Assembly (NCBI GenBank): GCA_034027115.1
Contig: GCA_034027115.1_4703.1
From: a phage
DNA length: 44,537 nt
Strand: one strand, 5' to 3'
Below are positions 2 to 44,537 of this stretch, piece after piece. How positions within the stretch are numbered: the stretch's first letter is position 1; each line of letters opens with the position of its first letter. The notes beneath the pieces are model-generated. The model did not search any database, was not told the origin of the DNA, and saw only the letters and a list, made by a program, of their open reading frames with translations. Made by a program: the position numbers and the translations under genes.

Positions 2-1273
2 GGTACAGCCAGTTACAACATAGTCAGTAATGTTATAGGGGCAGATTGCCAGCATGTAACTTACAACGGCACTGAAGGGCCAATAGCTCCTTCTAATAAC
101 CTTATCAAGGGGGTGATGGCTAATAACCCTAAGTATGCAGCGGTTGTTGCAGGCAAAGGAAGTACGAACTTAATCTCAGACGTGCTCGTAGGTTACTCAA
201 CTTCTGATGCTAGTCAGGCTCATGGTGTTACCGTAGAAGGGTCTGATAACGTCATAAATAATGTGCTTATGTCAGGATGTGATGGTACTAACTCTTTAGG
301 ACAAAGGCAGACTGCTACAATTGCACGCTTTATAGGTACAGCTAATAACAACTATGCGTCTGTATTTCCTAGCTACAGTGCTACAGGCGTTATTACTTTC
401 GAATCCGGCTCTACCCGTAACTTCGTAGAGGTAAAGCACCCTGGCAGGAGAAACGACCTTCTCAGTTCTGCTAGTACTATTGACGGTGCATCTACTATTG
501 ACGGCACTAATAATAGTAACGTAGTACACGCACCTGCCTTAGGGCAGTACATAGGTAGTATGTCAGGTAGGTTCGAATGGCGGATTAAGTCCATGTCACC
601 CCCTTCAGGCGTTCTTACTTCTGCTGATAAGTACAGAATGCTTGGGGATGGTGCTGTATCATTAGCTTTAGGTGGGGGTACTTCTTCTCAAGTTCGCCTA
701 TTTACTTCTGATGGTACTTCTCGGACAGTGTCCCTCACCAACGGTAACGTGCGTCTTTCTACCAGTACAGGCTATTTGCAGTTAGGTGCTAATGCAATGA
801 CCCCAGATAGTACTGGTACATACGCATTAGGTTCCGCCAGTCGAGCATGGTCTGGCGGTTATACTCAAGCAGCATTCACTGTTACATCAGATGCTCGGTG
901 TAAAACAGAACCTCTTACTATCTCAGATGCCTTACTGGATGCTTGGTCTGAAGTTGACTTTGTGCAGTTTAAGTATTTGGATCGTGTTGAGGAGAAGGGT
1001 GCAGACTCAGCTAGATGGCACTTTGGCATCATAGCTCAGCGAGCTAAGGAGGCTTTCGAACGCCACGGTATAGATGCACATCGCTATGGCTTCTTGTGTT
1101 TCGACAGTTGGGATGATGTATACGAGGAAGATGCCAATGGCTCTCGTAAACTGATTACACCAGCAGGTTCCCGCTACGGTATTCGTTACGAGGAAGTACT
1201 GATATTAGAGGCTGCGTTGATGCGGCGGACTATTAAGCGTATGCAGGAAGCACTAGCTTCCTTGCCTAAGTAA
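2..1273 (+). CDS. Tailspike/tail fibre protein, C-terminal portion; ORF is open to the window edge, so the 5' end lies outside. Ends in an intramolecular-chaperone (peptidase S74-like) domain.
   Basis: Frame is open from position 2 with no stop until 1271-1273; the first in-frame ATG at 113 is not the true start. Translation has the S-D-x-R-x-K autocleavage-type motif (TSDARCK) followed by ...WHFGIIAQRAKEAFERHGIDAHRYGFLCFDSWDD, typical of endosialidase/tail-fibre C-terminal chaperone domains. Confidence 0.8.
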   Translation, partial: GTASYNIVSNVIGADCQHVTYNGTEGPIAPSNNLIKGVMANNPKYAAVVAGKGSTNLISDVLVGYSTSDASQAHGVTVEGSDNVINNVLMSGCDGTNSLGQRQTATIARFIGTANNNYASVFPSYSATGVITFESGSTRNFVEVKHPGRRNDLLSSASTIDGASTIDGTNNSNVVHAPALGQYIGSMSGRFEWRIKSMSPPSGVLTSADKYRMLGDGAVSLALGGGTSSQVRLFTSDGTSRTVSLTNGNVRLSTSTGYLQLGANAMTPDSTGTYALGSASRAWSGGYTQAAFTVTSDARCKTEPLTISDALLDAWSEVDFVQFKYLDRVEEKGADSARWHFGIIAQRAKEAFERHGIDAHRYGFLCFDSWDDVYEEDANGSRKLITPAGSRYGIRYEEVLILEAALMRRTIKRMQEALASLPK

Positions 1274-1357
1274 GCAACAGGCAGTGCGTAAGCACTGCTT
1301 TCACGCAACTTTTCTTAAAGGTTATCATGGTGGTAGCCTTTCAGAAAAGGAGGTTAC

Positions 1358-3409
1358 ATGCTTCAAAGACTAGGGGCTTCCTTGGTGAAGTTCAAGAGTA
1401 AACTCGCTGGTGCCATCGAACGTATACTCTCAGACAAGTTAATGGACACTGTAAGCGTTAAAGATTTTGGCGCTAAAGGAGATGGTATCTCAGATGATAC
1501 TGCTGCTTTCAAAGCAGCAATAACTTGTGGCGCATCTCGTGTATTAGTACCTGCTGGTAGGTATGTGATTACTGACACCCTTTCTTTGCCATCTGGGGTC
1601 TGGTTATTGGGTGAGGGTGTTGACTATTGGGATACCTATCGTCCAGACGAGGGTAGGCTTATTAAGTCATGGAGTAAAGGAACGCACCTTGTGTTCACTG
1701 GCAGTGGGCCTAAAAACAAGCAATTTCTTAATATCTCTAATGAACGCCCAACAAAGACAATAAATAAAGTAACCTGCTCTTTTACCGACTTCACCAATAG
1801 TGATGCACAAGCAACAAAACCTGCTACACCACGTAGTATGAGTATTGCTGTATCAGTACAGGCAGGCAGTGGCTTACGCGATCTTCGTATTATGGTAAAC
1901 AATGAAGGTATCTCTGGTTACAATGACTTTGTTTCTACAAACAAGCTAGGTGACAACTGGGATATTGGGTTGCATGTATATGACAGCTCAGATGCTGTAA
2001 TTGATAATGTGCAAGTTGTTGGCTATTGGAGGGTTGCAGGTACACTCTTAACGGAGAACGACGGCTCCATCACAATGCGTGGTAATCCAGAGAAGACACT
2101 ATTTAATAAGTTCTACACTCAAGGTATCAGAGGTTTACTTATTAGGAATAGCCCACAAGTAGATGTAGTATCTCAAGAGTCAGCAACCAAGTTAACCATT
2201 AAAGCGAATGCTACGTCCCGTATATTAGCACAAAATGGTTTTCGAGTAGCAGGTAGTACTACGATACATAGATGGACTAGTGTTACAAGACAAGGAGACA
2301 CTTATGTATTAGATGGCATCACACCTGCGTTACCTTCTGCTTCTGACCTCGGGGTTGTTCATTTCCCATCTATGGGTAACAATTGGTCTGGTACAGTGTT
2401 CAACAATACTGTTGCTGTGTCCTTTGAGCACTCATCCGGTAGCACCTCAAGACAACTAGGACTTCCTGTATCTTTTGCTATGGAGATTGATGGCTTCCCT
2501 TGTCGTAACCTCAAGTTCATAAACTTCAAGGCACAGACTTCTTACGATGAAGGAAATACATTGTTTGGTGATATGCGCGATGCCAAGTTTGTGGCTAGTG
2601 AGTTCGAGAATGGTAGGTTGATTGCGTACGATTTGTCTCAGACCCAAGGGTACACTGGGAATATGCGGTCTGCTGTGTCTGACATGCAGTTTCATTCTAC
2701 TAATATTGAGGGCTTCACACCACGTGATTTCTTCTATGACCTAGGACACTTTCCTACTTCTTACACTGATGGTTCTTTTATCATGAAGCATTGGAGAGAA
2801 AAGGATTTACAGGTACAATGGTATAATGGTAAAGCATTCATCCGTCTACATGAAGATGATGGCCGTGTAACACTTACCAGTAAAGATGGTCTAGATTTGT
2901 ATAACTTTAGTTCTACAAAAGACGTGACGTTCAATGGTCGCAATTTTGTATTCAAAAACGATGTAAGTGAAGACGTATTGAAGTGGTTTGGCGGTTCAGG
3001 GGATATCTCTACGAAAGGCAACATCTCGCCTATGGTAGATGGGACTGCCTCTCTGGGTACAAATTTCTATCGCTGGGGCGCAGTGCATTCAGTAAATGGG
3101 ACGTTACAAACCTCTGACGGTAGGCTAAAGGAGATCCATGATATTAAACAAGAAGAACTTGATGCGGGGATTGCATTATCAGCAAGTCTAATCAAGTACC
3201 GTTGGTATGGAGAAGAAAAGTTCCACTTTGGTTGTATTGCCCAAGAGGTAATGTTAATCATGGAGAAACATAATCTAGACCCATTACAGTATGGAATGGT
3301 GCAGTATGATGAAGAGGCAGACATCTTTAGTGTAAACTATGCTGAATTGAACAGCTTCTGCATCGCAGCTCTGTCTAGGAGGTTGAATGCCATTAATCAA
3401 ATCAGTTAA
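1358..3409 (+). CDS. Tailspike protein (683 aa) with pectate-lyase-like right-handed beta-helix and C-terminal intramolecular chaperone domain; probable capsule/LPS depolymerase.
   Basis: SD AAAGGAGG 7 nt upstream of ATG. N-terminal VKDFGAKGDGISDDTAAFKAAI...VPAGRYVI motif typical of pectate-lyase-fold tailspikes. C-terminal TSDGRLKEIHDIK...FHFGCIAQEV chaperone motif. Confidence 0.85.
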   Translation: MLQRLGASLVKFKSKLAGAIERILSDKLMDTVSVKDFGAKGDGISDDTAAFKAAITCGASRVLVPAGRYVITDTLSLPSGVWLLGEGVDYWDTYRPDEGRLIKSWSKGTHLVFTGSGPKNKQFLNISNERPTKTINKVTCSFTDFTNSDAQATKPATPRSMSIAVSVQAGSGLRDLRIMVNNEGISGYNDFVSTNKLGDNWDIGLHVYDSSDAVIDNVQVVGYWRVAGTLLTENDGSITMRGNPEKTLFNKFYTQGIRGLLIRNSPQVDVVSQESATKLTIKANATSRILAQNGFRVAGSTTIHRWTSVTRQGDTYVLDGITPALPSASDLGVVHFPSMGNNWSGTVFNNTVAVSFEHSSGSTSRQLGLPVSFAMEIDGFPCRNLKFINFKAQTSYDEGNTLFGDMRDAKFVASEFENGRLIAYDLSQTQGYTGNMRSAVSDMQFHSTNIEGFTPRDFFYDLGHFPTSYTDGSFIMKHWREKDLQVQWYNGKAFIRLHEDDGRVTLTSKDGLDLYNFSSTKDVTFNGRNFVFKNDVSEDVLKWFGGSGDISTKGNISPMVDGTASLGTNFYRWGAVHSVNGTLQTSDGRLKEIHDIKQEELDAGIALSASLIKYRWYGEEKFHFGCIAQEVMLIMEKHNLDPLQYGMVQYDEEADIFSVNYAELNSFCIAALSRRLNAINQIS

Positions 3410-3536
3410 GCAAAGTGCTGTACGCCAGAACACAGAAGAGCTTATTCAATCAGGACGTGACCCTAAGCAAGCTTATGCCGTTGCCAAGGATGTACAACGT
3501 CGTGCAATGAAGAAACCTTCTGCATCTTCTGCGTAA
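3387..3536 (+). CDS. Possible small basic protein (49 aa) at the genome right end.
   Basis: ATG 4 nt after GGAGG; overlaps the tailspike 3' end; too short for the ORF track; no recognisable motif. Confidence 0.2.
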   Translation: MPLIKSVKQSAVRQNTEELIQSGRDPKQAYAVAKDVQRRAMKKPSASSA

Positions 3537-3953
3537 GCAGGTTAATGTCTTAGTGTACACAAGGGCAGACCTAGGTTTGCTCTTAGTGTATTTACAATGG
3601 AGGTCTTATGTATATACCTATGGAAGCAATAGTAGGTTGCCTATGCTTGTTGATAGGTTTCGTTATAGGCTTAATAGTAGACCCTTAGTCCTGTACAAGG
3701 ATTAACCAAAGTCAAAATTTTGATATGGTCGTGTGTGAGGTGTCTCGCCCTCGCCCTCGCCGGGTTGCCCCCATAGGGTGGCCTGAGGGGATCCGTCTTC
3801 GACGGGCAGGGCTGATGTACTCCTTGTCTAGTACAAGGGAGGCGGAGGGAACGCCTAGGGATGCCTAGGGAATGTCTTAGTGGTGGACAAGGTGATTGCC
3901 TTAGTGAAGTCTCTTAGTGCATTCCTGAGGCCATTCAGGGCGTTTATGAGGGA

Positions 3954-3983
3954 TTGACAGGGTGGATGGGCGTGGGCTATCTA
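3954..3983 (+). promoter_or_regulatory. Possible host sigma70-type early promoter (TTGACA, 18-nt spacer, TATCTA).
   Basis: Perfect -35 hexamer; weak -10; lies in the genome-end region upstream of the early genes. Confidence 0.3.
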
Positions 3984-4371
3984 TTCGTTTCGCTACGCTT
4001 CACTCACTGCTCCTCACTTCGTTCGTCGCTGCGGTAGCCTGATGTGTACCTTAGGTTATTACTTGATGGATAGCTTAGGTTAGCCTTAGTGGATTACCTT
4101 AGTTAAAGCCTTAGTGCTTCACTTAGTATCAGCTTAGTAGTGTACCTTAGTAAGTATTAGTGTCTTCTCTTAGTGATTGCACATGCAAGCATGTAAGATG
4201 CCATTAGGTCGCGGTCGGTAGACCGCTAAAGAAGGAGAATAGTAATAAGATGCAGTAGGAGGAACACCAGAAACCTAGCCAACCTAGCCTATCCTAGCTC
4301 TGTATCTATTGCTTTTCCTTAGTCTAACACGTTAGACAACCTATCTTATTCTTAGTGATGGTAACTTAGTG

Positions 4372-4400
4372 TTGACAAGATAATCTTAGTGTAATACTAT
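4372..4400 (+). promoter_or_regulatory. Candidate host sigma70-type early promoter (TTGACA, 17-nt spacer, TACTAT).
   Basis: Perfect -35, 17-nt spacing, 4/6 -10 match; about 140 nt upstream of the first early ORF. Confidence 0.4.
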
Positions 4401-4543
4401 GCATCACGTAGGCGGTGCTGAGGCACCTAGTAGCCAGCTAGTAAGGCATACGAAGAGACTAGCGCTTACATTGCTCTTTAACAATTTGCTTAGTGTAACC
4501 TATGTATGCCGTGGTTAATTACTTATTGAATGAGGGATTAACT

Positions 4544-4984: not shown

Positions 4985-5126
4985 AAGCATCAAGACGGCG
5001 ACGTCTTTAAACATCCCGCTCTTTAACAATTTGGATGGTAACTTCTTAGTCTGGATAGGTTAAACCTAGGAGATTCTCTTGAGTCTCCTATAATGTAACC
5101 TAACTAACTAAATGAGGATTAATAAC

Positions 5127-5486
5127 ATGGCTATGTCTAATATGACTTACTCTCAGGTTTACAACACCGCTCATGCTGCATTAGTTGAACGTATCTGGAA
5201 TGATGCTATTGATTGTATTGATAACGCACATGATGCAATCCATGATGTGGCGGATAGTGCTGTACCAATCTATTATGCTGACATCTTCTCCGTGATGGCG
5301 AGTGAAGGAATTGATCATTTCTTCGAAGACTCCGGCCTGATGCCAGACACTAAGGATGTAACGGTAGTCTTGCAAGCCCGTATCTATGAGCAACTCACAA
5401 TTGATCTATGGGAACGTGTTCAGTATATGATTGTTGAATACGTCAACTCCGCCGAATATTTAGAAGAAGAAGAAGAGGAAGAATAA
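5127..5486 (+). CDS. ocr: Ocr-like DNA-mimic anti-restriction protein (T7 gp0.3 family).
   Basis: Translation MAMSNMTY...[34 protein letters not shown]...[14 protein letters not shown]... closely matches T7 Ocr as I recall it; poly-Glu C-terminus; GAGGA SD 8 nt upstream of the ATG at 5127 (the ORF track start at 5112 is an upstream in-frame ATG). Confidence 0.9.
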
Positions 5487-9674: not shown

Positions 9675-9697
9675 ATTTACCGGACACTATAGGATAG
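9675..9697 (+). promoter_or_regulatory. Phage RNAP promoter (ATTTACCGGACACTATAGGATAG).
   Basis: Matches the window's own consensus and the SP6-type CACTATAG core. Confidence 0.6.
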
Positions 9698-38200: not shown

Positions 38201-38406
38201 TTCAGACTAAGGGTTTGATAGACCAAATACCACTAGTAGGTGTTGGTCAAGATGCATATCGTTTAGCAGATTCTATAACTAAATATGCAGAAGGTGATAC
38301 AGAAGGTGTAGATGTGGCACGTAGGGCTTTACGCTTAGTGCCTCTAACTAATGTAATAGGAATCCAGAACGCATTGCGTTATGGCTTAGATGAACTGGAG
38401 GATTGA
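35209..38406 (+). CDS. Large internal virion/ejection protein (1065 aa), T7 gp16-equivalent.
   Basis: GGAGGA SD; size; position between internal virion protein and tail adaptor. Confidence 0.85.
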   Translation: MEQDIKTNWAGYVQSTPEPFSIEAAPVSAPTIRQRNELQEQVLEAKADADILGAVGAAFQNEWLAFGGKRWYDRATADFTPQPDFEIQPEQREALRFKYGTDMMQTITEGVRSEGELNFRIQNADEDLERNKRIAQAGWVGSVATIGAAVLDPVGWVASIPTGGAAKVGLVGRAVRGAIAAGVSNAAIESVLVQGDMTRDLDDIMVALGSGMAMGGVIGAVARGRATKLSEQGDDRAASIVRSADAGDRYVRAVADDSIGAMRVKGEEVLTEGAFDISSKGEDLLKTLQREGNSIDMTPRRWAGTMSALGTVVHSSHDASVRGLGARLFESPQGLGMQKASASLMQNTNLNRLKSADMNRFNDGFDLWLKENNINPVAGHTNSHYVQQYNEKVWEAVRIGMDESTPKSIRMAAEGQQAMYREALALRKRSGEAGFENIKADSKYMPDIFDTMKARRQFDRIGKDIDKEDIIELFSRAYQNGARKIPKEVADEIARAQVNRVVDATLTGRMSFEKAMSGQTKAEYEAIMRKAGFSDEEIEKMVEALDNKETRDNISNRAKMSLGLDVTQEYNGIRMRDFMNTNVEELTDNYMKEAAGGAALARQGFSTYQAALNAIDLVERNARNAAKDSKASLALDEEIRQMREGLRLIMGKSIDVDPQALSTKILRRGRDITGVLRLGQMGFAQLGELANFMGEFGIAATTIALGKQFRFTSKALRSGDGFFRDKNLAEVERMVGYIGEDNWLTTKGARPDEFGDVTTVKGMMAHFDQSMNSIRRAQTNLSLFRMAQGSLERMTNRQIALSFIDHLEGKKIIPQKKLEELGLTQEFMTNLQKHYDANSKGSGLLGFDTMPYAMGETLANAIRRKSGLIIQRNFIGDEGIWMNKALGKTFAQLKSFSLVSGEKQFGRGIRHDKIGLAKKTAYGFALGSIVYAAKAYVNSIGREDQDEYLEEKLSPKGLAFGAMGMMSTTAVFSLGGDFLGGLGVLPSELVQSRYEAGFQTKGLIDQIPLVGVGQDAYRLADSITKYAEGDTEGVDVARRALRLVPLTNVIGIQNALRYGLDELED

Positions 38407-39368
38407 TGAGTTATACTTTCACAGAACATATAGCCAACGGTACGCAAGTAACCTATCCCTTTAGATTTGCTGGCAGGGATAAAGGCTATCTTCGTGCCTC
38501 AGATGTGATAGTGGAATCTCTTCAAGGTAACACTTGGATTGAGGTTACATCTGGCTGGCAACTAACTGGCACGCACCAGATTACTTTTGATGTAGCACCA
38601 GTTGCAGGTTTGAAGTTCCGTATTCGAAGGGAAGTACAAAAGGAGTATCCATACGCTGAGTTTGACCGTGGTGTTACCTTGGATATGAAGTCTTTAAATG
38701 GTTCTTTCATTCATATACTGGAGATTACACAGGAGTTACTTGACGGGTTTTATCCAGAAGGATACTTCATTAAACAGAATGTAAGCTGGGGCGGCAATAA
38801 GATTACTGATTTGGCTGATGGCACAAATCCTGGAGATGCAGTAAATAAAGGGCAGCTTGATGCCATCGACAAGAAGCATACAGATTGGAACGCCAAACAG
38901 GACATTGAGATTGCTGGCCTTAAGGCTGGTATGACTTCTGGTATTGCGCACAGAACTGTTCCTTGGTACACGATAGCCAAAGTTGGTGAGATTTCCGTAA
39001 AACCACCTTATGAATTTCAAGATGCACTAGTTTTCCTTAATGGGGTGTTGCAGCACCAAATTGTAGGCGCATACTCTATAAGCAACAACACTATCACTTT
39101 CGCAGAGCCGCTTGTGGCGGGTACAGAGGTGTATGTGCTGATTGGTAGTCGTGTGGCTACATCTGAACCTAATATTCAGTTAGAGTTGAACTTTGACTTA
39201 GTAGAAGGCCAACAAGTAGTACAGATTGGCTCTGCATTTAAGTACATTGAGGTCTACCTTGATGGATTATTACAACCTAAACTTGCTTATCAGGTAGACG
39301 GTGACATTGTTACTTTCTCAGAAAGAGTACCAGAATGCCGGATGACTGCTAAGATTATCACAGCATAA
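38406..39368 (+). CDS. Tail fibre N-terminal-domain homologue acting as tailspike adaptor.
   Basis: GGAGG SD; ATG overlaps upstream stop (TGATG); about 320 aa, the size of a gp17 N-terminal domain without a receptor-binding part, as in SP6-like phages where separate tailspikes dock on an adaptor. Confidence 0.8.
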   Translation: MSYTFTEHIANGTQVTYPFRFAGRDKGYLRASDVIVESLQGNTWIEVTSGWQLTGTHQITFDVAPVAGLKFRIRREVQKEYPYAEFDRGVTLDMKSLNGSFIHILEITQELLDGFYPEGYFIKQNVSWGGNKITDLADGTNPGDAVNKGQLDAIDKKHTDWNAKQDIEIAGLKAGMTSGIAHRTVPWYTIAKVGEISVKPPYEFQDALVFLNGVLQHQIVGAYSISNNTITFAEPLVAGTEVYVLIGSRVATSEPNIQLELNFDLVEGQQVVQIGSAFKYIEVYLDGLLQPKLAYQVDGDIVTFSERVPECRMTAKIITA

Positions 39369-39572: not shown

Positions 39573-39855
39573 ACATGCAGCTACAGAGGACGAGGTTGGC
39601 ATTCTGCATGGTGCTATTACCAAAATCTTCAATAAGAAAGCACAGGCAATACTGGACACTATAGAAGAAGACCCTGATGCAGCATTACATTTAGTGTCTG
39701 GTAAGGATATTGGTGCGATGTGTAAGTGGGTTCTTGATAACGGCATTACCGCCACACCTGCTGCACAGCAGGAAGAGTCCAAGTTATCTAAGCGCCTCAA
39801 GGCTATCCGAGAGGCATCCAGTGGTAAGATTATTCAGTTTACAAAAGAGGAGTGA
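39556..39855 (+). CDS. Putative terminase small subunit (positional call; GTG start after GGAGGG).
   Basis: About 99-aa ORF between holin and large terminase as in T7 gene 18; no motif I can verify. A promoter-like AATACTGGACACTATAGAAGAAG lies inside at 39646..39668. Confidence 0.45.
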   Translation: MSVHNKHAATEDEVGILHGAITKIFNKKAQAILDTIEEDPDAALHLVSGKDIGAMCKWVLDNGITATPAAQQEESKLSKRLKAIREASSGKIIQFTKEE

Positions 39856-39856
39856 T

Positions 39857-40300
39857 ATGCATAGATGGTGTGAATCTCAAGGTTATACCATCTTACCTTC
39901 TGGTGTCATCCTTTCAAAGGGTGGCACCCCTCTCAAACCATTCAAGGCGGGTAGGGGTTATTTAGCAGTTAAAATTAAAAATAAAGAAGGTAAATGGCGT
40001 AATGTCTATGTTCATCAATTAGTGGCTTATAAGTATTTACCTAAAACTAATAATGAAGTAAACCACAAAGACGGCGATAAGCACAACAATGATGTTAGCA
40101 ACTTGGAGTGGGTAACAAGAAGCGAGAATAACTATTTAAAATGCAATGGAAATGATAGGAGTGCCTTAAATAGCTATTTAGCAAGATTAAAAGATTGCTT
40201 CTTGCAAGGTAAGGGTGTAGCAGAAACCGCTAGACTTACTGGTAAAAGTGAACCAAGAGTTTCTTCTCTCTTTAAGGAGTGGCGAAATGGCAAAGGCTAG
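39857..40300 (+). CDS. HNH endonuclease inserted between the terminase subunit genes.
   Basis: AGGAG SD; NHKDGDKHNNDVSNLEWVTRSEN HNH signature; overlaps the large terminase start. Confidence 0.8.
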   Translation: MHRWCESQGYTILPSGVILSKGGTPLKPFKAGRGYLAVKIKNKEGKWRNVYVHQLVAYKYLPKTNNEVNHKDGDKHNNDVSNLEWVTRSENNYLKCNGNDRSALNSYLARLKDCFLQGKGVAETARLTGKSEPRVSSLFKEWRNGKG

Positions 40301-43856: not shown

Positions 43857-43880
43857 ATTTACTGGACACTATAGAAGAGG
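43857..43880 (+). promoter_or_regulatory. Phage promoter, consensus copy, upstream of the tailspike gene.
   Basis: ATTTACTGGACACTATAGAAGAGG. Confidence 0.7.
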
Positions 43881-43958: not shown

Positions 43959-44537
43959 ATGGCTAAATTAACCAAACCTAATACTGAAGGAATCTTGCAT
44001 AAAGGACAATCTTTGTATGAGTACCTTGATGCGAGAGTTTTAACATCAAAGCCGTTTGGTGCTGTAGGTGACGCCACTACTGATGATACGGAGGTTATAG
44101 CTGCTTCATTAAACTCTCAGAAAGCTGTCACAATCTCAGACGGTGTATTCTCTAGCTCTGGTATTAATAGTAATTACTGTAACTTAGACGGTAGAGGTAG
44201 TGGGGTGCTAAGTCACTGTTCCAGTACAGGTAACTACTTAGTATTTAATAATCCACGTACAGGTCGCTTAAGTAATATTACGGTAGAAAGTAATAAGGCG
44301 ACTGATACAACTCAGGGACAGCAGGTATCTCTTGCTGGTGGAAGTGATGTTACTGTAAGTGACGTTAACTTCTCAAACGTTAAAGGTACTGGTTTCAGTT
44401 TAATCGCATACCCTAATGATGCGCCACCTGATGGTCTTATGATTAAAGGCATTCGAGGTAGCTATTCAGGCTATGCTACTAATAAGGCAGCCGGATGCGT
44501 ACTTGCTAACTCCTCAGTTAACTCCCTCATAGATAAC
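43959..44537 (+). CDS. Tailspike protein, N-terminal portion (3' end beyond the window).
   Basis: AGGAG SD before ATG 43959; no stop through the window end; FGAVGDATTDDTEVIAASL matches the N-terminal signature of pectate-lyase-fold tailspikes; not in the ORF track because it has no stop. Confidence 0.8.
   Translation, partial: MAKLTKPNTEGILHKGQSLYEYLDARVLTSKPFGAVGDATTDDTEVIAASLNSQKAVTISDGVFSSSGINSNYCNLDGRGSGVLSHCSSTGNYLVFNNPRTGRLSNITVESNKATDTTQGQQVSLAGGSDVTVSDVNFSNVKGTGFSLIAYPNDAPPDGLMIKGIRGSYSGYATNKAAGCVLANSSVNSLIDN

Follow-up and report, generated by a model that had tools for sequence, protein, structure and literature searches.

The adaptor gp37 of phages K1-5, K1E and SP6 joins two different tailspikes to the tail, with six copies of each and two host specificities (PMC6966330, PMC5380687). 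For K1-5, the work of Scholl 2001 and Leiman 2007, to the extent that it is summarised in PMC6966330 and PMC5380687, identifies gp46 as a K5 lyase, gp47 as a K1 endosialidase and gp37 as the adaptor. Here we describe a pair of tandem tailspike genes, termed gene A and gene B, at the start of a 44,537-nucleotide stretch of phage DNA (GenBank assembly GCA_034027115.1, contig GCA_034027115.1_4703.1); the whole of this stretch is referred to as the window. We consider it highly probable that the two genes encode a receptor module of a K1-5-like podophage, in which a K5 lyase and a second beta-helix enzyme are mounted on gp37. The arrangement is the published K1-5 design, a textbook case, and the underlying biology is already known.

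From its sequence the phage is a Vectrevirus, that is, a K1-5/SP6-like member of the Autographiviridae. When the first 3.6 kb of the window are compared with phage DNA, K1-5-like phages are the best matches (94-97% identity). Of the 105 phage records that match this query, Vectrevirus DIJ06P1 is the only one with a coverage above 80%, and the CFT073 phage KMB47 covers 45% of the query at 97.7% identity. All large open reading frames of the window lie on the + strand. The features of a dual-tailspike system are present, namely a gp37 adaptor, two tandem spike genes at the right genome end and a gp47 anchor. The earlier note, made from the letters of the window, had proposed two spikes on one adaptor in the K1-5 manner, and the gene content bears this out: gp37 is 99% identical to its K1-5 counterpart, and both the gp46 slot and the gp47 slot are filled.

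38406..39368, + strand: gp37 adaptor, 320 amino acids, with a T7-gp17-type N-terminal tail-binding domain, which would carry both spikes; 99% (316/320) identical to K1-5 gp37.

The adaptor matches the Pfam family Phage_T7_tail (PF03906, E 3.6e-6), and a Pfam scan located this gp17-type head in neither gene A nor gene B.

The window is a circularly permuted genome whose ends cut inside gene A, which is consequently found in two parts.

43959..44537, + strand: N-terminal 193 codons of gene A, with the ATG at 43959; 97% identical to K1-5 gp46 residues 1-193.
2..1273, + strand: C-terminal 424 codons of gene A and the stop, covering the remainder of the beta-helix, then the stalk (a triple beta-helix) and the chaperone; 97% identical to K1-5 gp46 residues 209-632.

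In the interval 2-3409, given in the earlier note for the two tailspike genes, the first gene is incomplete, its N-terminal part lying at 43959-44537. At the junction (44537/1) 44 nucleotides, GTCATTGCTAAGAACTACCCTCGGTTCGGAGCAGTAGAGTTGAA, are absent, and this removes 15 codons (194-208) of gene A. A public contig, the Logan assembly SRR22684248_106 (L005 hereafter), shows 100% identity to the window across the 1,599 and 5,200 nucleotides compared on the two sides of the junction, and its positions 1600-1643 supply the missing 44 nucleotides, restoring an intact gene A of 631 amino acids. The break is therefore an artefact of the window edge. The gene B protein encoded by L005 is exactly that of the window. 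We also considered that gene A might be truncated or a pseudogene, in the manner of K1E, and rejected this because the gene is intact in L005.

The gene A product differs from K1-5 gp46 by 19 substitutions and one deletion (approximately 97% amino-acid identity), matches the K5 lyase structure PDB 2X3H (E 2.9e-180) as well as 9VVR (E 2.1e-254), and is matched over its full length by the tail spike family phrog_14895 (1-631 of 632). Judged by these matches, gene A is a known enzyme, the heparosan (K5) capsule lyase gp46 of K1-5. E206, K208 and Y229, putative active-site residues of KflA, are all present. Two of the substitutions, D272G and R279S (window 815-817 and 836-838), stand seven residues apart, and K1-5, KMB14 and DIJ06P1 all have the aspartate and the arginine; the pair could mean that a salt bridge has been lost or that a binding surface has changed. 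Such changes bear on an alternative in which the K5 lyase is kept as a conserved "resident" spike that, its activity having changed or been lost, does not serve the phage on K5 hosts any more, and host range is set by spike B alone, as may be compared with the truncated gp46 of K1E. The 19 substitutions and the deletion relative to K1-5, with D272G and R279S absent from the three other copies examined, would fit this alternative, as would the presence among the matching records of phages from non-K5 hosts (O18ac:K1:H7, CFT073), KMB47 being an example. However, gene A has its full length and shares 97% identity with an active enzyme, E206, K208 and Y229 are in place, and the K1E type of loss is a truncation, which is not seen in gene A. 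We regard the alternative as unlikely and retain the assignment of spike A as a K5 lyase, probably a working one. The suggestion of the earlier note that both spikes are likely capsule or O-antigen depolymerases stands for spike A (approximately 97% identical to gp46), whereas for spike B the label is reasonable but unproven.

Gene B occupies the gp47 slot.

1358..3409, + strand: gene B, 683 amino acids, consisting of an anchor peptide, a beta-helix body, a stalk and a short chaperone domain.
1358..1487, + strand: N-terminal anchor peptide of gene B, about 43 codons, presumed to bind gp37; kept with K1-5 gp47.
1451..2740, + strand: right-handed parallel beta-helix of gene B, approximately residues 32-460, the presumed glycan-binding and catalytic body.

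Residues 1-58 of the gene B protein share 65% amino-acid identity with K1-5 gp47, and the anchor peptide also aligns with gp51 of Klebsiella phage Kp7 (7Y5S). The pectate-lyase-type beta-helix that had been read from the letters alone is recovered in the structure prediction of gene B, whose body is modelled as a right-handed, parallel, pectate-lyase-like helix. Within this body D202, E376 and E417 are invariant across 57 aligned homologues (26-55% identical overall), as are H358, R263 and R383. The three invariant acidic residues suggest an active site, which we infer would be of glycosidase type. Spike B could instead be a binding-only adhesin, a non-cutting beta-helix that leaves the K5 lyase as the sole depolymerase of the phage. 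The six invariant residues speak against this, since together they are the usual signature of an active site, as does the fact that the podophage beta-helix tailspikes characterised so far are nearly all enzymes (PMC6966330). We consider a binding-only role quite improbable and continue to favour an enzyme.

The earlier note had held that both spikes end in an intramolecular chaperone module with the motif S-D-x-R-x-K, and this is confirmed by Peptidase_S74 matches in both and by catalytic residues that are in place.

887..1270, + strand: C-terminal intramolecular chaperone domain of gene A, 128 amino acids, beginning at the Ser of T-SDARCK (887-904); Peptidase_S74.
3113..3406, + strand: C-terminal intramolecular chaperone domain of gene B, 98 amino acids, beginning at Ser586 of T-SDGRLK (3113-3130); Peptidase_S74.

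SDARCK corresponds to residues 296-301 of the gene A fragment and SDGRLK to residues 586-591 of gene B, so that both spikes possess the catalytic Ser and, five residues on, the Lys (S-x4-K). Identity between the two domains is no more than about 30%. Gene A matches Peptidase_S74 (PF13884) with E 1e-14 and 55 bits and gene B with E 1.7e-5 and 25.5 bits. A profile of gene B and its homologues matches the chaperones of endoNF (3GW6, E 5.6e-42) and GA-1 (3GUD, E 1e-39), and S586, D587 and K591 are invariant among the 57 aligned homologues. The Ser and Lys of gene A align with S911A and K916 of endoNF 3GW6; the 2X3H crystal chain stops exactly at the motif Ser and 3GUD begins at the aligned Ser. 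In T5 pb1 an Arg from the neighbouring chain senses correct folding of the triple helix and the Lys activates the Ser (PMC4690869). D561, R572, S586 and K591 of gene B each have their counterpart in an alignment with T5 pb1, namely D1239, R1250, S1264 (an Ala in the crystal) and K1269, and the spacings of D561 and R572 from the Ser (-25 and -14) are the same as in that protein. The sequence of gene A has an Asp at -27 and an Arg at -15 from the motif Ser, for which a role as folding sensor is plausible.

Cleavage in T5 pb1 and K1F falls before the Ser, T|S (PMC4690869); by these examples the cut is expected in the same place in both spikes, and not after the Ser. K1-5 ORF46 has a mass of 67 kDa and a mature form of 52 kDa (PMC5380687), which fits the loss of approximately 15 kDa, that is, of the 128-residue fragment of gene A. 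By analogy with ORF46 gene A would cleave itself, and conservation of the catalytic residues suggests that gene B would do so too. In the gene B model the chaperone domain comprises helix 598-608, strands 612-614 and 623-625, helix 628-637, a hairpin of strands 648-651 and 656-659 and a long terminal helix, 661-682; a Foldseek search with the model matched 4UW8 with probability 1.00. The domain has only 98 residues because its hairpin is short, with two four-residue strands. The chaperone of KMB14 gp47 is a similar short version.

Close copies of the gene B body among 50,697 phage records are confined to DIJ06P1 (96.9% protein identity) and, in part, NTNC80A (92%); the remaining matches to the protein in these records are at most 57% identical. 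A literature search turned up no host-range data for either phage. The GenBank record of NTNC80A opens inside the spike gene (1-819), and the fragment is labelled "cell wall surface anchor family protein"; the label looks misannotated because the start point of the record falls inside the gene. An exhaustive search with the body alone returned 224 representatives at E <=1e-3, and 55 at <=1e-30, out of 1.84 billion. Some 75 clusters are 35-86% identical to the gene B body nearly throughout, from residue 5-50 of gene B onward. These wider relatives carry other N-terminal heads of 100-420 amino acids, including the P22 head-binding domain PF09008, PF18668, the T7 domain PF03906 and PF12571.

The heads on these relatives raise the question of which polysaccharide spike B addresses. 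It may be an endoglycosidase that acts on O-antigen and not a capsule depolymerase, in which case the phage would combine specificity for the K5 capsule with specificity for lipopolysaccharide. Bodies 45-86% identical to that of gene B are fused to PF09008 and PF18668 heads and are found in E. coli prophage tailspikes, and spikes with such heads mostly target O-antigens. The P22-type heads on the relatives thus lean slightly, on general knowledge, towards an O-antigen target for gene B. Moreover, SP6, of the same subfamily, directs both of its spikes at O-antigens (PMC6966330). Set against this, those Vectrevirus spikes of E. coli phages that have been characterised are directed at K antigens (K1, K5), the homologues found include none whose specificity is known, and specificity does not transfer at approximately 50% identity. 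Nor was a copy of gene B above 67% identity located when 5,426 complete E. coli genomes were searched at the DNA level; the serotype of a lysogen is therefore unusable, and no specificity can be transferred to gene B. We place the O-antigen reading a little short of an even chance, within our broader view that spike B is an enzyme acting on a surface polysaccharide of E. coli.

Several points weigh against the module as we describe it. The D272G and R279S changes of spike A, absent from K1-5, KMB14 and DIJ06P1, may affect its K5 activity. The Peptidase_S74 score of gene B, 25.5 bits, barely exceeds the Pfam gathering cut-off of 22 bits, and its chaperone domain is the shortest of the motif-bearing homologues (98 residues against 101-200). 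When the gene B family profile was compared with solved structures, matches were confined to the N-cap and the chaperone; the catalytic body has no solved relative at the sequence level. We tentatively entertain, at somewhat less than even probability, a joint reading in which spike B is a depolymerase whose target, a capsule or O-antigen type of E. coli, is one for which a phage enzyme has yet to be characterised, belongs to a small family that swaps heads and carries the smallest working self-cleaving tailspike chaperone known, its hairpin "tentacle" being almost absent. The small family would in that case number 224 clusters, defined at 50% identity, out of 1.84 billion representatives, and would move between podophage, P22-like and other tail types.

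The surroundings of gene B can be compared with those in K1-5; a spacer precedes the gene, and a small gene overlaps its end.

1274..1357, + strand: intergenic spacer of 84 nucleotides with a stem-loop and the ribosome-binding site of gene B, AAGGAGG (1347-1353); inside the K1-5 block 1-1487.
3387..3536, + strand: gene 48, a small conserved gene of 49 amino acids that overlaps the end of gene B; a called gene in L005 at 5030-5179, matching phrog_2423 (E 1e-22).

From base 1 the DNA is homologous to that of K1-5 without a break as far as 1487 (95% identity); homology is then lost and is back at 3384, at the start of gene 48, which marks out 1488-3383 as a replaced cassette. Homology to KMB14 ends at 1485 and returns at 3092, where the chaperone domain begins. 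The partial matches with mapped breakpoints (K1-5, KMB14) accordingly share gene A and the flanks, and do not share the gene B body. From these sequence breakpoints the gp47 slot is a swap cassette, with the anchor-peptide segment as its left border and gene 48 as its right. Just 3' of the K5-lyase stop lies a GC-rich stem-loop with a 7-bp stem (GCAGTGC GTAA GCACTGC, 1281-1298), which is kept in K1-5. It is not a canonical terminator, because only three T follow, and might be a site of RNA processing or attenuation between the spike genes.

Transcription of the two genes can be considered from the promoters of the window.

43857..43879, + strand: phage-RNA-polymerase promoter ATTTACTGGACACTATAGAAGAG, approximately 80 nucleotides upstream of gene A; an exact match to the window's own consensus.

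Across the whole window this consensus has eight + strand matches with 0-3 mismatches, where none is expected by chance. The SP6/K1-5-type promoters lie at 9675, 11977, 16527, 16990, 18221, 26996, 42184 and 43857 and outline the transcription units. Scanning with the consensus at up to three mismatches located no phage promoter between gene A and gene B, and the two spikes are therefore probably co-transcribed. Sigma-70-like promoters are at chance level (9 found, 8.1 expected).

We propose the following model. One late phage promoter would drive both tailspike genes, and each spike would trimerise assisted by the chaperone at its own C-terminus. Once the triple beta-helix has folded, the Ser-Lys pair would cut before the Ser and free a chaperone of 128 residues from spike A and of 98 residues from spike B. 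The mature spikes would then bind gp37, itself held to the tail by its T7-gp17-like head. Each of six tail positions would carry one A and one B spike, a stoichiometry carried over from K1-5, K1E and SP6. Spike A would cleave the heparosan (K5) capsule by beta-elimination, and spike B would bind, and most probably cut, a different surface polysaccharide of E. coli. As the two glycans differ, the phage could adsorb to two glycan types. The gp47 cassette would here hold a body shared with tailspikes whose N-terminal attachment heads are of other kinds.

The place of the spike genes within the genome can be judged from the terminal repeat. The direct terminal repeat of K1-5 (234 bp) has a single counterpart in the window, at 3745-3979, just downstream of the spikes, and we predict physical genome ends at approximately 3745 (left) and 3979 (right). 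This makes genes A and B the final large genes at the right end of the genome, as in K1-5. The region 3537-4500 contains no sizeable open reading frame. Further along, an early gene at 5112-5486 has an anti-restriction function; its product, which bears a poly-Glu tail, is a DNA mimic of the Ocr type (PF08684, E 5e-41). An open reading frame for an HNH_3 homing endonuclease (39710-40300) sits between the genes for the small and large terminase subunits; it is present in some Vectreviruses (VEc3, AAPEc6, KMB47) and absent in K1-5, where gp39 abuts gp40.

Our prediction is that the phage recognises K5-encapsulated E. coli and a second glycan type. Spike B is a candidate enzyme for depolymerase catalogues or for the retargeting of phages and pyocins, and the clean cassette borders, the anchor peptide on the left and gene 48 on the right, mark where spikes can be exchanged. 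The value is practical, not conceptual, and the understanding of how such phages work is unchanged.

Among known systems the closest is the gp46/gp47/gp37 set of K1-5, with which the locus shares genus, gene order, promoter, intergenic spacer and gp47 anchor, as well as Peptidase_S74 domains at the ends of both spikes. It differs in that the body of gene B is an unrelated beta-helix with a shorter chaperone, whereas K1-5 gp47 is an endosialidase beta-propeller; since the gene B body is not of endosialidase type, the predicted second specificity is not K1. Gene A matches the whole mature region of KflA from coliphage K5A (2X3H) and differs from it by a few substitutions only, D272G and R279S being particular to this copy among the four compared. 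The chaperones of K1F endosialidase (3GW6), the GA-1 neck appendage (3GUD) and T5 pb1 (4UW8) resemble that of gene B in Pfam family, in the Ser/Lys pair at i,i+5, in the upstream Asp and Arg and in the order of secondary structure, with the long coiled-coil helix last; they have 129-133 residues or more against 98 in gene B, where the beta-hairpin "tentacle" is short. The type I tail fibre gp51 of Kp7 (7Y5S) differs from gene B in host and substrate, and no sequence relationship is detectable between the two beta-helix bodies. NTNC80A (OP018999.1), over the part retained, and DIJ06P1 (OZ035817.1, unannotated) have the gene B body in common with the present phage; unlike the latter, DIJ06P1 has the K1-5-type residues at gp46 positions 272 and 279.

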